Source: a virus
Lineage: Duplodnaviria; Heunggongvirae; Uroviricota; Caudoviricetes
Virus record (IMG/VR): IMGVR_UViG_3300029471_000065
Strand: one strand, 5' to 3'
Length of the DNA: 5,503 nt
Positions 1-5,355 of the stretch are shown piece after piece; position 1 is the first letter of the stretch; every line of letters starts with the position of its first letter. The position numbers and the translations under genes are program-made. The notes under the pieces were generated by a model. That model ran no database searches. It saw only the letters and a list, made by a program, of their open reading frames with translations, and was not told the DNA's origin.

Positions 1-391
1 CAGTAGCAGCGTCGTCAAATGCATTATCGCAAGCCTCACCGCCATCAGTTTCTTCGTAGTCAGCACGGAACAGACCATTTAATTTATTGGCTAACTCTTC
101 GCTTGCCTCTCTGTCACCAGGACGAAACTTAACGGTGATTCTGTTATTGCGGTATTCTGCAATGATGCGGTTAAGTTCAGTTGCTACCTTATTGATTTCA
201 AACTTAGGATACTTCTCGAACTGCTCATCAAGCTTAGTTCCAGCCGCCGTTGCTCCTTCCCATTGACCTCCGGGGACACGAGCAAACCTCGTAGCTTCAA
301 TGCACTTTTCGCGCACTTCCTGCTGTGGAGAATAGGCGCGGTCAAACCTGAGCATGATCCGCTCATGTTTTTTCTCTAATGTCTCTGCCAT
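1..391 (-). CDS. Portal protein, N-terminal 130 codons (P22/Sf6-like portal family); gene continues beyond the window start
   Basis: Manual translation of the minus strand from the ATG at 391..389 gives an open frame to position 1 with no stop: MAETLEKKHERIMLRFDRAYSPQQEVREKCIEATRFARVPGGQWEG...ITVKFRPGDREASEELANKLNGLFRADYEETDGG. It is absent from the ORF track because it runs off the window edge. The ATG lies 2 nt after the terL stop (394-396), fitting the usual terS-terL-portal order. Resemblance to the P22 gp1 N-terminus (RFD..., ...YRPKDG...L.G.YR.D pattern) is from memory. Confidence 0.7.
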   Translation of the reverse strand, partial: MAETLEKKHERIMLRFDRAYSPQQEVREKCIEATRFARVPGGQWEGATAAGTKLDEQFEKYPKFEINKVATELNRIIAEYRNNRITVKFRPGDREASEELANKLNGLFRADYEETDGGEACDNAFDDAAT

Positions 392-393
392 GT

Positions 394-1798
394 TTACCAA
401 CCGGAGGATGAGGGAACGTATATTTCAGTTTCTTCGCGGACCAATGCCGGGCAATGCATACACATCATCAGCGCATCAGCCAGGTTAGGAGATGGAATAC
501 CGAGCTTCTGCTTCATTTCGACCTTAGTCATAAGCTCCAGCTTCCCGTTGTTATTGAATTTGCGCTGAATCTGCGTCAGTTCTGCAAACAGCTTCTCCAG
601 CATCTTCTCGCCTATCGCTTCTTTGTCGAAACTCAGCATGTCGTCGGGGTCTGCATACTCACCGTGAACAACCGCCCGATATGTCAGATACAGCCTGTCA
701 GCCAGCGCGTAATAGAATTGCGCTCGCTTATTGCGGAATACATCGCCAATAGTGCGGACGTTGTCGCCCTGCACGACTTCATCAGCCCATGCTCCGGCCT
801 GGTAAGGCGCATCTTCATCGAATGGCGATTCGCTACCCTTGAACATCGTGGCGGTGATTTTCTTACCGGAGAACGCTTCCGTTGTCTGTCTGCGTAGCCC
901 GGCACCAACACCATCACCATCCCACAGGTAGTGGTCAGCGCCGTCTTCAATCGCCAGCGAAGTAGCCCAGTCAGCACCATCGTTGATGTCCATCAGCAGA
1001 CCTTCGGCAATGCGCTTAACTACCGAACCGTGACGCGATGCATAACCTTTAGCATCTGGCCCTGTATCTGATGGGTCATGCGCAGAGACAACAGCGCCTT
1101 TCGCTTTCCATCCGAGTTTCTTGTGCGCATCGGTTGCGGCTTCAAGCCATTCACGTTTGATGATTGCCATATCACTTGCGCTTACTGGCTCACCAAGCCA
1201 GATGTGACGATACAGTGTCGGATTTCTGCGTTTACACTCTTCCATCTCCAGACGGAGAACTTCAGGAAAGTGCGGGTTGTCGGTGTAGTTCACCGTCAGC
1301 AGGCAAATATCATCTGGAGGATTTACGACGAATCGCTGATAGGTATCGTCGAGGATGTTTTTCGGGTTAAAGCTCACCCATATTTCAGAGAACGGCTTAC
1401 GGATGGTTGGTATCAGGATATCCCATGATTCCTTCGTTACCGCCTCCGCTTCTTCCACCCAGCAGATATCAATACCTTCGAGCGATTTAATCTTCGTCGG
1501 GTTGTTTTTGATGCCGTAGAACATGAATTCAGCATTCGTTCCGAGATGACGAATCATTGAACGCTGAATTTCAAACTCAGCCGAATACCCTTCACGCTCG
1601 ATGGTGTCTTCAAGCAACCGGATTACTGATACTGTTTTGCAGTTCACGAGCGCAGAGAATACGCACTGGCTGCCGACGCGCCGCTTCAACAAGCAGTCTC
1701 GCAATTGCCCATGACTTACCGCTACCTCGACCGCCTTTGGCGACTTTGTAGCGATGCGCCTCAATGAACGGTTCAAAGATAGGATTAATCGAGGTCAT
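394..1798 (-). pseudogene. terL: Terminase large subunit (TerL, PBSX/Terminase_3-like ATPase-nuclease), reading frame interrupted by a frameshift near 1635-1638
   Basis: The 62-aa ORF 1610..1798 carries the N-terminus with a Walker A P-loop (KGGRGSGKS) and its ATG overlaps the terS stop by 4 nt (ATGA). The 460-aa ORF 394..1776 carries the rest of a TerL-like protein in a different frame. The two frames meet at minus-strand CTGCAAAACAGTATCAGTAATCCGG; removing one A from the AAAA run (plus-strand TTTT at 1635-1638) joins them as ...[25 protein letters not shown].... The first ~45 residues of the 460-aa ORF (MNRSL...SALVNCK) are out-of-frame read-through, not real protein. Confidence 0.85.
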
Positions 1799-2322
1799 TT
1801 TCCGAACAGAGTGCTCATCGGTGATGTTTCAATCTGGATTGCGCCGCCGTCTTTGCCGGTTAGCTCGTGAGAAGCTTGTTCTTTAAACGCCTGAACGGAA
1901 ACATGCTTACCAAGAAGTTCGAGATTTTTGACCTTATCAGGCCATTTGATTTTCTTCAGAAGTGCGGTGCTATCTGCAGATACCATCTCCACGACATCCA
2001 TTCCTGATAGCGTTGTGCGCCATACCTTAGGCCAGTCTTTAATTGGTTTTAGCTCACCGTTTTGCAGGAGAATGTCGAGCACATCCATCTGATCGATTTC
2101 AATAAGGCGATTAAGCACATATTCTGCATTAATACCAACAAGATCATTGCGTTGCGCTTTCAGTTCGGCGATTCTGAATTGGATGTCAGGTTTTGACATG
2201 TTTTCGGATGCGGTACGGTTAGCTGTCTTTGCGCTGTACCCCGCCCGAATAGCCGCTTGCGTGGCATTTAAATCGATGAGGTACTCGCGACAGAACATTT
2301 CTTGTTTGTCGGTGAGTGCCAT
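1795..2322 (-). CDS. terS: Terminase small subunit (Terminase_2 / P27-type, N-terminal HTH DNA-binding domain)
   Basis: 175-aa ORF beginning [56 protein letters not shown], the characteristic N-terminal motif of Terminase_2 small subunits (from memory). Its stop overlaps the terL start by 4 nt, indicating translational coupling. A weak GGAAG Shine-Dalgarno lies upstream of the ATG at 2322. Confidence 0.8.
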
Positions 2323-2348
2323 TTTTTACTTCCCATAAGGAGATTGTT

Positions 2349-2531
2349 ATGAACGATGACTTTAAAACAGGTGACATTGTTAAACTGAAATCAGGCGGAC
2401 CTGACATGACTATCAGGTCATTTTCATCTACCAACGGTAACTCTTTTCTTTGTCAATGGTTTGCTGGCAAGAAGCTTGAGCAAGGATATTTCAAACCGGA
2501 ATCTCTTGAGCGCGTTACCCCAAAGCCATAG
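2349..2531 (+). CDS. Small protein of the YodC/DUF2158-like family (60 aa), function unknown
   Basis: ATG at 2349 preceded by a strong Shine-Dalgarno TAAGGAG (2336-2342) at 6-nt spacing. Product MNDDFKTGDIVKLKSGGPDMTIRSFSSTNGNSFLCQWFAGKKLEQGYFKPESLERVTPKP carries the GD.V.LKSGGP.MT motif I associate with YodC-like proteins (from memory). The ORF track's longer 2316 start is a GTG extension with no RBS, so the ATG at 2349 is preferred. Confidence 0.75.
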   Translation: MNDDFKTGDIVKLKSGGPDMTIRSFSSTNGNSFLCQWFAGKKLEQGYFKPESLERVTPKP

Positions 2532-2575
2532 TCCCAAACACACCAACCTTAACTCTTGATGATATTTCATCATGG

Positions 2576-2815
2576 ATGATGTCCGTTTTATCAACAGATG
2601 GTTGCCTTTATCAGCAGGATGTTGTGGATTATCTCGTTAAACAACATAACGAGCAGCACCTCAAAGAAAATGCGGATGGCAACCAAGCGCTATCAACAAA
2701 AGTGATTAATAAATTCAGGGTTGATAGCGGTGAAAGTGTTGTTTGGGTTAAGCCAGATAAGTACTGGCGTTTCCGTGTGCCTGAAGACGAAAACGGTCGT
2801 GAAGCTCGCGGTTAA
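2576..2815 (+). CDS. Hypothetical small protein (79 aa), co-directional with and 44 bp downstream of the YodC-like gene
   Basis: Open frame MMSVLSTDGCLYQQDVVDYLVKQHNEQHLKENADGNQALSTKVINKFRVDSGESVVWVKPDKYWRFRVPEDENGREARG ending at TAA 2813-2815, 18 nt before the 2833-2853 hairpin. No clear Shine-Dalgarno before the ATG at 2576, so the start is uncertain (an internal GTG after AGGA at about 2621 is an alternative). No family recognised. Confidence 0.5.
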   Translation: MMSVLSTDGCLYQQDVVDYLVKQHNEQHLKENADGNQALSTKVINKFRVDSGESVVWVKPDKYWRFRVPEDENGREARG

Positions 2816-2832
2816 ACTAATCAACTATAAAA

Positions 2833-2853
2833 GGCAGCATGTTGAGTGCTGCC
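2833..2853. terminator. Candidate bidirectional rho-independent terminator between convergent genes
   Basis: Perfect inverted repeat GGCAGCA (2833-2839) / TGCTGCC (2847-2853) with a 7-nt loop. On the minus-strand transcript the stem is followed by UUUUAUAGUU, 38 nt after the stop of the 80-aa gene. On the plus-strand transcript it lies 18 nt after the stop of the 79-aa gene and is followed by a moderately U-rich tract (AUAUUCAUCUCACUUAUUUGUUAUUU). Confidence 0.55.
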
Positions 2854-2890
2854 ATATTCATCTCACTTATTTGTTATTTCAGGTTGAGCA

Positions 2891-3133
2891 TCATGCTCCG
2901 GTAGTGAACAGGTCTAACGCTTCCTTCGATTTACGCACCGCTTCGATAGTGCGGGTCGTGATATCTGAATTAGCGCCGCCTGACTGGAAGTGAATTTTGA
3001 ATAGCTCAAGCTTCAGCTCGTCAGTGCCAATGAACTGAAATGCTTCTTCTGCGGCTGCGTTCTGGTTCATGACCAGCTTGTAAATCTCTAACTGGAATTT
3101 CTGTTCTTCAGTCATGGGAATAATCTCTGCCAT
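2891..3133 (-). CDS. Hypothetical small acidic protein (80 aa)
   Basis: ORF MAEIIPMTEEQKFQLEIYKLVMNQNAAAEEAFQFIGTDELKLELFKIHFQSGGANSDITTRTIEAVRKSKEALDLFTTGA with a GGAG Shine-Dalgarno 6 nt upstream of the ATG at 3133 (minus strand AACGGAGCCAACAATG). It is followed by the terminator-like hairpin. No family recognised. Confidence 0.6.
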   Translation of the reverse strand: MAEIIPMTEEQKFQLEIYKLVMNQNAAAEEAFQFIGTDELKLELFKIHFQSGGANSDITTRTIEAVRKSKEALDLFTTGA

Positions 3134-3427
3134 TGTTGGCTCCGTTTATCCGTTAAAAGGGATATCAGTTAAGTTATCCCGTGTAGGGTATAAGCCATTG
3201 TCGAGACCACTCATTGAATGGCCTCTGCAATAACCGATGTCTTTCCATCAGTCCGCCACCACAAAGAATCTTTTTTGCCATAAGGCTGGAGGTTCATCTT
3301 TCAGTGGCTGCCAGTGTTATTTCCCCACTTACTGGCTTGGGTTGTTTCGTGGTACTGCCGTAACTGGTTGCCCAGAATAAATTCTGGTTTCATTATCAAG
3401 CCCACCCGTAGATGGGCTTTGGAATGG

Positions 3428-3946
3428 TCACTTTGGCAGTCCGGGGATCGATATTTGCGCCTGCTGCTCAAGCCTTTCGATTCTTGCTATGAGTTGCGGT
3501 TTTTTGATCCTGCCCCAGCGGTTCAGCAAGCGTCCTGACATACTGGCAACATCCTTTTCCTTCATGAACTCCAGCATTAACTCGTTGTGCTCTCTTTGGT
3601 ATGAGTGAGCCATCTCCATCAGCCTGTCACGCATCCAATTAAATGCTTTGATAAACGCCTCTTTGATGGCGGCAGCTTTTTTGCCGGTAAACGACATGAT
3701 GATGTACATCGCACCGTCTTTGGAAATTTCATATTCAACATACTGATTACCCTTGTGTTCATAGGTAACCCGCGAAAAGTTGCTGGTTAGAAATTCATCC
3801 GAACAGTCTAGCTTTTCGATTTTCTGAATGATGTGGTGATGCTGCTTGTCGAAGTAAGATGCTACCTTGCGGGAGGTTGTGATCACGCGATCACCAGAAA
3901 CAACCACCATGTCCCGGAAATCGAGATTAGCCAATTGATGATTCAT
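3428..3946 (-). CDS. Phage regulatory protein, Rha family (antirepressor-like), 172 aa
   Basis: Start assigned to the ATG at 3946..3944 (MNHQLANLDFRDMVVVSGDRVITTSRKVASYFDKQHHHIIQKIEKL...), matching the N-terminal Rha-domain pattern (V.TSR.VA..F.K.H..V...I..L) from memory. The ORF track's 240-aa version extends upstream through the N gap and is an artefact; the upstream in-frame residues (VSEPEKSRYRWRPLSGG...) are low-complexity and span a hairpin. The Shine-Dalgarno is weak to moderate (AAAGG about 10 nt upstream). Confidence 0.7.
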   Translation of the reverse strand: MNHQLANLDFRDMVVVSGDRVITTSRKVASYFDKQHHHIIQKIEKLDCSDEFLTSNFSRVTYEHKGNQYVEYEISKDGAMYIIMSFTGKKAAAIKEAFIKAFNWMRDRLMEMAHSYQREHNELMLEFMKEKDVASMSGRLLNRWGRIKKPQLIARIERLEQQAQISIPGLPK

Positions 3947-4041
3947 AGCGTCTTTACCTTTTAGAAAGTGAGCCTGTCTCACAGAAAAGCCGCCCGAGAG
4001 AGGTCGCCACCTATAACGGCTTTTCTCAGGCTCGCTTACTG

Positions 4042-4146
4042 NNNNNNNNNNNNNNNNNNNNNNNNNNNNNNNNNNNNNNNNNNNNNNNNNNNNNNNNNNN
4101 NNNNNNNNNNNNNNNNNNNNNNNNNNNNNNNNNNNNNNNNNNNNNN
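4042..4146. other. Assembly gap (105 consecutive N)
   Basis: Run of n characters seen directly in the sequence; indicates a scaffolded draft assembly with unknown true length and content. Confidence 0.99.
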
Positions 4147-4575
4147 GCATTGCGTCCTGATGTATTCCTGCAGGTAGTTAACCTGCGCGGTTATCCTGTC
4201 GATTCCACTTCGGAGACGGTAATAATTGAGTTCAGCATCTGCTGTAAGTCCTGGGCTTTCTCCATCGCCCATGCTGCTGGCTCCGGTCGTTGACTTTGCA
4301 CAGGTGGCAGCGACTTGCAGGCGCTTACGCCCAGCAGAAACATCAGCACGGAGACTTTCGATAGTCGCGTTAGCATCAGCAAGCTCCTTTGTATATCTGG
4401 CATCGAGTTCTGCTACGTCACGTTGACGCTTCTGCATGTCAGCGATGATGGATGTGGCTTTGTCGCGCTGCTCTTTGTAGGCGATGGCGTTATCACGGTA
4501 ATGATTAACAGCCCATGACAGGCAGACGATGATGCAGATAACCAGAGCGGAGATAATCGCAGTTACTCTGCTCAT
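4147..4575 (-). CDS. Rz: Spanin inner-membrane subunit Rz (i-spanin), 3' end truncated by the assembly gap
   Basis: ATG at 4575 overlaps the R stop by 4 nt (ATGA). N-terminus [31 protein letters not shown] matches lambda Rz as I recall it, with a single N-terminal transmembrane segment and a coiled-coil-like remainder. The visible 143 codons end ...[11 protein letters not shown] and run into the N block, so the stop codon is not visible. Confidence 0.85.
4191..4376 (-). CDS. Rz1: Spanin outer-membrane lipoprotein subunit Rz1 (o-spanin), embedded in the +1 frame of Rz
   Basis: Start assigned to the internal ATG at 4376, preceded by AAGGAG at 7-nt spacing. Product [61 protein letters not shown] (61 aa) has a signal peptide with lipobox V-S-A-C and a proline-containing mature part. 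It is wholly contained in Rz, as in lambda (MLKLKMM... start, from memory). Confidence 0.7.
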
Positions 4576-5048
4576 ACCTCAATCTCTCTGACCGTTCCGC
4601 CTGCTTCTTTGAATTTTGCAATCAGGTTGTCAGCCTTATGCTCGAACTGACCATAACCAGCGCCCGGCAGTGAAGCCCAGATATTGCTGCAACGGTCGAT
4701 AGCCTGACGGATATCACCGCGATCAATCATCGGTAAAGCGCCACGCTCTTTAATCTGTTGCAGTGCCACAGCGTCCTGGCTTTTCGGAGAGAAGTCTTTC
4801 AGGCCAAGCTGCTTACGATAGGCATCCCACCAACGGGAAAGAAGCTGGTAACGTCCGGCTGCTGTTGATTTGAGTTTTGGGTTTAGCGTGACAAGTTTGC
4901 GAGGGTGATCGGAGTAATCAGTGAATAGCTCTCCGCCTACAATGACGTCATAACCATGATTTCTGGTTTTCTGCCGTCCGTTATCAGTTCCCTCTGACCA
5001 CGCCAGCATATCGAGGAACGCCTTACGTTGATTATTGATTTCCACCAT
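4572..5048 (-). CDS. R: Endolysin R (lambda-type lytic transglycosylase), 158 aa
   Basis: Product [51 protein letters not shown]... is near-identical to lambda R as I recall it. The start overlaps the S 3' end by 17 nt and the stop overlaps the Rz start by 4 nt, the lambda arrangement. Confidence 0.95.
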
Positions 5049-5355
5049 CTTCTACTCCGGCTTTTTTAGCAGCGAAGCGTTTGATAAGCGAACCAATCGA
5101 GTCAGTACCGATGTAGCCGATGAACACGCTCGTTATATAAGCGAGATTGCTACTTAGTCCTGCGAAGTCGAGAAGGTCACGAATGAACCAGGCGATAATG
5201 GCGCACATCGTTGCGTCGATTACTGTTTTTGTAAACGCACCGCCATTATATCTGCCGCGAAGGTACGCCATTGCAAACGCAAGGATTGCCCCGATGCCTT
5301 GTTCCTTTGCCGCGAGAATGGCGGCTAACAGGTCATGTTTTTCTGGCATCTTCAT
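5032..5355 (-). CDS. S: Holin S (class I holin; dual-start S107 antiholin / S105 holin), 107 aa
   Basis: Product [107 protein letters not shown] matches lambda S from memory, including the Met1-Lys2-Met3 dual start (ATGAAGATG at 5355..5347). Confidence 0.95.

Follow-up and report, generated by a model that had tools for sequence, protein, structure and literature searches.

An apparent 8-base deletion splits the large-terminase gene of an Sf6-type phage scaffold: very recent inactivation or local assembly error

The window, meaning the whole stretch of DNA analyzed here, is an entire JGI/IMG scaffold of 5,503 nt (IMG/VR record IMGVR_UViG_3300029471_000065) and the sole record of the terL allele that it carries. 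All late genes in it lie on the minus strand. Its features are as follows.

5355..5032, minus strand: lambda-family holin, a late gene
5048..4572, minus strand: GH24 endolysin, a late gene
4575 into the N gap, minus strand: Rz, with an embedded Rz1 lipoprotein ORF
4042-4146: run of 105 N
3946..3428, minus strand: Rha-family regulator
3133..2891, minus strand: DUF2560 gene
2576..2815, plus strand: DUF6953 gene, opposite to the late genes
2349..2531, plus strand: YodC/DUF2158 gene, opposite to the late genes
1795..2322, minus strand: terS, small terminase of 175 aa, intact (Pfam Terminase_2, E=3.5e-39)
1798..394, minus strand: terL, in two frames
1610..1798, minus strand: terL 5' fragment ORF of 62 aa (Pfam Terminase_3 profile positions 2-46, E=5e-7)
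1635..1638, minus strand: A4 run (T4 on the plus strand), which is not the lesion, lies about 9 nt upstream of the deletion and does not differ in length from that of any intact homolog
1626/1627: deletion junction, coding strand ...AGTATCA/GTAATCC..., where coding nt 173-180 (GCGATTCG) are lost
394..1626, minus strand: terL 3' part, native V61-W470 plus stop, shifted +1 from the frame of the start codon (Terminase_3 positions 42-201, E=5e-28)
2..391, minus strand: 5' end of a P22-type portal gene (Pfam P22_portal), 130 codons, intact to the contig end

The order terS, terL, portal is present in the window (Terminase_2 at 2322..1795, terL at 1798..394, P22_portal from 391), and the start of terL overlaps terS by 4 nt. 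The portal fragment is identical to the portal of Escherichia coli GPEC79-13-647 at 130 of 130 residues, and the exact TerS protein occurs in many NCBI E. coli genomes, and in all 10 of the places shown an intact TerL of 470 or 471 aa comes after it. Positions 1400-1900, spanning the terS-terL boundary, have prophage matches of 94-97% nucleotide identity in about 640 of the 5,426 complete E. coli genomes, and the same stretch also matches, in the same identity range, phages Sf6, HK620, CUS-3, and Sf101; these phages and the matching prophages are P22-like (Lederbergvirus) headful packagers. On balance, and taken jointly with the 8-bp deletion described below being real, we favor reading the window as the part of an E. 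coli phage or prophage of Sf6/HK620/CUS-3 type (P22-like, headful-packaging) that runs from the lysis to the packaging genes.

Several other features of the scaffold were recorded. The ORF inside Rz in another frame (4191-4403, minus strand) has a lipobox-like LLGVSAC and a proline-rich tail, and appears to be the expected Rz1 spanin lipoprotein, seemingly intact. Between the lysis cassette and terS, the YodC/DUF2158 and DUF6953 genes (2349-2815, plus strand) are opposed to the late operon, are kept in relatives with the same terS, and look like moron-type accessory genes. The N gap lies just upstream of a slot that in relatives holds genes with Rha, KilA-N, or T5orf172 domains, and it replaces about 255 nt in the closest relatives (positions 1746-2000 of locus L003), so the count of 105 N is not the true length; that stretch in the relatives comprises the last Rz codons, a hypothetical ORF of 50 aa, and the spacer before Rha. 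The two contig ends coincide with points of divergence among related prophages, one upstream of the holin and the other about 390 nt into the portal gene, and within terL the closest relative switches every few hundred bases. These end positions and switching relatives reflect either typical mosaicism or the presence of several related prophages in the sample; the N gap together with the ends at mosaic boundaries suggests that a mixture of related prophages went into the assembly.

The original prediction placed terL in two frames, an ORF at 1610..1798 and the rest open to 394 in another frame, with the Walker A motif in the N-terminal ORF and a T4 run at 1635-1638, and all of this is as described. 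The 62-aa ORF consists of native residues M1-S58 followed by four out-of-frame residues, NPVA, and a TGA at 1612..1610, and it contains Walker A as GGRGSGKS (residues 22-29, G22-S29). Walker B (ICWVEE, residues 114-119) lies in the 3' part, which has no further lesion and also holds the RNase-H-like nuclease domain: residues 208-470 match the Sf6 gp2 nuclease crystal chains 5C10/5C12 (E ~1e-175), with Pfam Terminase_3C by itself below its cutoff (21.2 vs 26.7 bits). Because the Terminase_3 hits to the two pieces cover consecutive profile positions (2-46 and 42-201), they represent a single ATPase domain cut in two, and the same coordinates rule out the idea, raised with the original prediction, that the N-terminal ORF belongs to an independent gene family. 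When the 8 nt are restored, the gene encodes a protein of 470 aa that is identical to WP_000200760.1 at 470 of 470 residues and to Sf6 gp2 (PDB 4IDH) at 469 of 470, which bears out the earlier view of one gene broken by a frame-shifting lesion. An N-terminal ASCE ATPase domain with Walker A (GxxxxGK[ST]) and Walker B motifs, a C-terminal nuclease domain, and synteny thus all place the gene in the TerL family of Terminase_3/PBSX, Sf6 gp2 type; an uninterrupted frame of ~470 codons is lacking, with a stop at 1612..1610 after the 8-bp deletion. As written, terL reads as a pseudogene, a predicted null allele of the Sf6 gp2-type TerL family.

Judged from sequence comparison, the large-terminase frame is broken by a unique 8-base deletion and not by an extra homopolymer base. 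All 15 intact comparators, which include 10 loci picked solely for encoding an identical TerS, carry 8 extra bases between 1627 and 1626, either GCGATTCG or, in Sf6, GCGATTCA. Intact genes read CAAAACAGTATCA-GCGATTC(G/A)-GTAATCCGG where the window reads CAAAACAGTATCA-GTAATCCGG, and the exact position of the deletion leaves 1 nt of ambiguity, or 4 nt should the second repeat have been TCAG in the ancestor, as in Sf6. Apart from the 8-nt gap, alignments of 1.4-2.3 kb to 16 loci are gap-free, and the alignment to E. coli GPEC79 and Sf6 shows a single gap, of 8 nt; in each full-length E. coli match, a 501-nt query over the site corresponds to 509 nt. The allele was absent from the ~560 complete E. 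coli genomes covering the site, in each of which an 80-nt query corresponds to 88 nt, and the two-ORF arrangement was found in none of these copies and in none of the 15 aligned ones.

The homopolymer explanation fared poorly in the same alignments. It held that terL had gained one base in the A4/T4 run at 1635-1638, through a sequencing error or a slippage mutation, and in its favor the removal of one A does restore a single open frame; since losing 8 nt moves the frame just as gaining 1 nt does, the arithmetic of the original prediction worked. The product of that repair, however, is 467 aa long and not the native 470 aa, being 3 residues short with 2 substitutions and altered where native TerL reads ELQNSISDSVIRLL, against 470 of 470 identical residues when the 8 nt are put back. 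Intact homologs, proposed as the place to look for one base fewer, instead have the run unchanged (CAAAAC in 15 of 15 intact comparators) and are 8 nt longer, the sole length difference being the 8-nt gap of mixed sequence located 9 nt downstream of the run. Because the A4 length is common to all intact homologs, a homopolymer-length error does not explain the split, and we consider an extra base in the run almost certainly wrong. A +1 frame offset, then, need not mean one added base; comparison with homologs both moved and resized the lesion.

Among the closest known systems is the gene 2 protein of Shigella phage Sf6 (PDB 4IDH/4IEE/4IEI/4IFE; 469 of 470 residues identical over the full length after restoring the 8 nt). 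Sf6 shares with the window the terS-terL-portal order and the 4-nt terS/terL overlap; the window copy differs in lacking coding nt 173-180 and in stopping after residue 58 plus four out-of-frame residues. The small terminase is also of a different type (423 nt for Sf6 gene 1, 528 nt for the window terS), and nucleotide similarity to Sf6 starts only near the 3' end of the window terS. WP_000200760.1, a "PBSX family phage terminase large subunit" found for example in E. coli GPEC79-13-647, matches at 470 of 470 residues after repair with 30 synonymous differences. GPEC79-13-647 is the only complete E. coli genome with a single match over at least 80% of window positions 1-4041 (97.9% identity), and it has the same gene set as the window (Rha, DUF2560, DUF6953, YodC, terS, terL, portal); it differs in that its terL is intact, its Rha-DUF2560 spacer is 56 nt longer, and it has an additional 2 nt at window position 3368.

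On either side of the deletion stand short, imperfect direct repeats, TCAG...TC(G/A)G; with the Sf6 allele as ancestor the direct repeat would be perfect over 4 nt, and with the commoner E. coli allele 3 of the 4 positions match. The 8 bp (coding nt 173-180) may have been lost between TCAG and TC(G/A)G by replication slippage or microhomology-mediated deletion, a mechanism that we infer because it is what such flanking repeats lead one to expect. The surrounding coding nt 165-190 repeat imperfectly with a period of 8 nt (TCAGCGAT / TCGGTAAT / CCGGTTGC) and lie at the base of a weak hairpin. Hairpin-driven deletion was considered and rejected, the folding of the intact 51-mer (−7.2 kcal/mol, z = −2.0, 6 of 200 shuffles as stable) being too weak as support. 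The finished genome of E. coli ETEC1716 (NZ_CP122880.1; positions 2680-2690 of locus L017) carries a naturally defective terL of Sf6 type, the pseudogene QDX09_RS17460, which breaks within ~16 nt of the window deletion (window 1610-1630). It retains GCGATTCG, extends as far as ...GTAATCCG, and is joined there directly to the 3' end of a tail gene; the remainder of terL and the genes usually found after it are absent, so this is a different event from the window deletion. That nt 165-190 are a recurrent deletion hotspot costing Sf6-type prophages their packaging, with the window and ETEC1716 as independent examples, seems very unlikely to us; the two nearby breakpoints were found post hoc and are most likely a coincidence.

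A split or recoded but functional terL, working through +1 frameshifting, termination-reinitiation, or two cooperating fragments, would draw on the overlap of the two frames and on a TTG at 1617, 5 nt before the TGA, as a possible reinitiation codon. We regard it as extremely improbable. None of the ~560 E. coli copies has the arrangement and terL is intact at all 10 loci with identical terS; the stretch that would have to host a +1 shift, AGT AAT CCG GTT GCT TGA, lacks a known +1 slippery motif or a Shine-Dalgarno-like stimulator, and no recognizable slippery motif was read from the sequence at 1610-1630. Transcriptional slippage requires a longer run than A4, so the run upstream is too short to serve. 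A restarted product would be without Walker A, and a joined one, however made, would have residues D59-L65 missing or changed. Programmed +1 frameshifting of the prfB type (CUU UGA C) likewise requires a +1 shift just before UGA, but the window has neither its slippery P-site codon nor its upstream Shine-Dalgarno-like element, and no relative has such an arrangement.

The rest of terL bears on the age of the lesion. Against GPEC79, the gene has 30 differences over 1,405 nt, of which 30 are synonymous and none non-synonymous; since ~23% of random changes would be synonymous, at most ~2 substitutions can have accumulated since constraint was lost. Only three terL substitutions are private to the window among the 15 comparators, and all are synonymous. 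No frameshift or premature stop was found in the other genes of the window (Rz enters the N gap and the portal gene is cut by the contig end), nor was any other coding indel found in 5.4 kb, further indels being intergenic only. In the Rha-DUF2560 spacer (window 3368-3386), the window is 56 nt shorter than GPEC79, with 9 nt replacing 65 nt; the 2-nt indel at 3368 adjoins this change, and these are the sole other length differences from the closest relative. We rejected the idea of a low-quality, indel-rich sequence on the absence of another coding indel in 5.4 kb and the few private, synonymous substitutions, and the scaffold sequence appears accurate at the base level. A single lesion, no non-synonymous change among 30 differences, and neighbors without frameshift or stop do not describe a long-inactive cryptic prophage. 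Because the rest of terL is undecayed, the deletion is very recent or else not real; if it is real, the inactivation would be very recent.

The choice between these two is closer. An artefact would mean that terL is intact in the real phage and that the 8 bases were lost in contig merging, gap closing, or consensus calling, for which a mixed-strain metagenome assembly is the proposed setting. It would account for an allele recorded only once: an exact search for the junction in genome, viral, and metagenome contig collections returned no second copy, and exact-protein lookup found the 62-aa terL fragment once in 15 billion proteins. For that fragment and for nine versions of the downstream ORF with different candidate starts, lookup returned nothing beyond the window's own contig. 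The other proteins in the cluster of the 62-aa fragment are contig-end partials or different truncations, and none of the 14 listed has the NPVA tail. The perfect conservation of the repaired protein, with 0 of 30 differences non-synonymous, fits an artefact equally well, as zero decay is what either predicts, and the 105 Ns in place of ~255 nt and the scaffold ends at variable junctions also point that way. So does the absence of small indels from finished genomes, where 0 of 53 full-length terL copies (a spread sample of the E. coli matches) carry one; the natural rate of small frameshifts in terL is thus low, probably of the same order as the per-gene frequency of small assembly errors in metagenome scaffolds. 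Defective relatives, which weigh in favor of a real deletion, are common in nature, as the annotated terL pseudogene of strain ETEC1716 illustrates: less than 80% of terL is covered in 69 of 648 E. coli records (~10%), these being large truncations.

Contigs from De Bruijn graph assemblers are made only of k-mers present in reads, which counts against an error introduced at assembly, and a loss of 8 non-homopolymer bases would be an unusual read error. The site is also separated from the N gap by 2.4 kb and from the closer contig end by 1.6 kb, and as far as one can tell the contig has no other error, its private changes being all synonymous and its other ORFs intact. The size of 8 nt, the mixed non-homopolymer bases, the flanking microhomology, and the clean contig elsewhere all speak for a real event. 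We consider an artefact quite possible, if short of probable, and lean modestly toward a deletion that exists in the biological sample. Overall, the lesion reflects one of two things: an inactivating mutation of very recent date or a mistake in local assembly. The gene (an Sf6 gp2 orthologue), the phage type, and the class of lesion are all already known, and in that respect the finding is an ordinary one.

In TerL proteins, an N-terminal ATPase drives DNA translocation and a C-terminal nuclease cuts concatemers (PMC4678813, PMC5727402). Translation of the window allele from the normal start would yield 58 native residues with the P-loop alone and reach a stop after a further NPVA. The other 410 codons, for Walker B, the lid subdomain (an assignment taken from the TerL literature), and the nuclease domain, would stand in the +1 frame with no convincing ribosome-binding site; no Shine-Dalgarno-like sequence was found upstream of the downstream in-frame ATG, GTG, or TTG codons. 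Any product of a downstream restart would be without Walker A. As neither a 58-residue P-loop peptide nor a restart product lacking Walker A can do the job of TerL, the allele as written is predicted to be packaging-null: it would be null for the ATPase/nuclease that cuts DNA and pumps it into procapsids, and DNA-filled particles would need intact TerL supplied in trans.

If the deletion is an artefact, it warns that a frameshift on a short metagenome scaffold should count as a pseudogene only when reads support it. If, as we favor, the deletion is real, this copy of the phage would be unable to package DNA alone and would be a freshly disabled prophage, and the scaffold would offer a snapshot of the first step in prophage domestication, with the other cassette genes on its 5.5 kb still intact.
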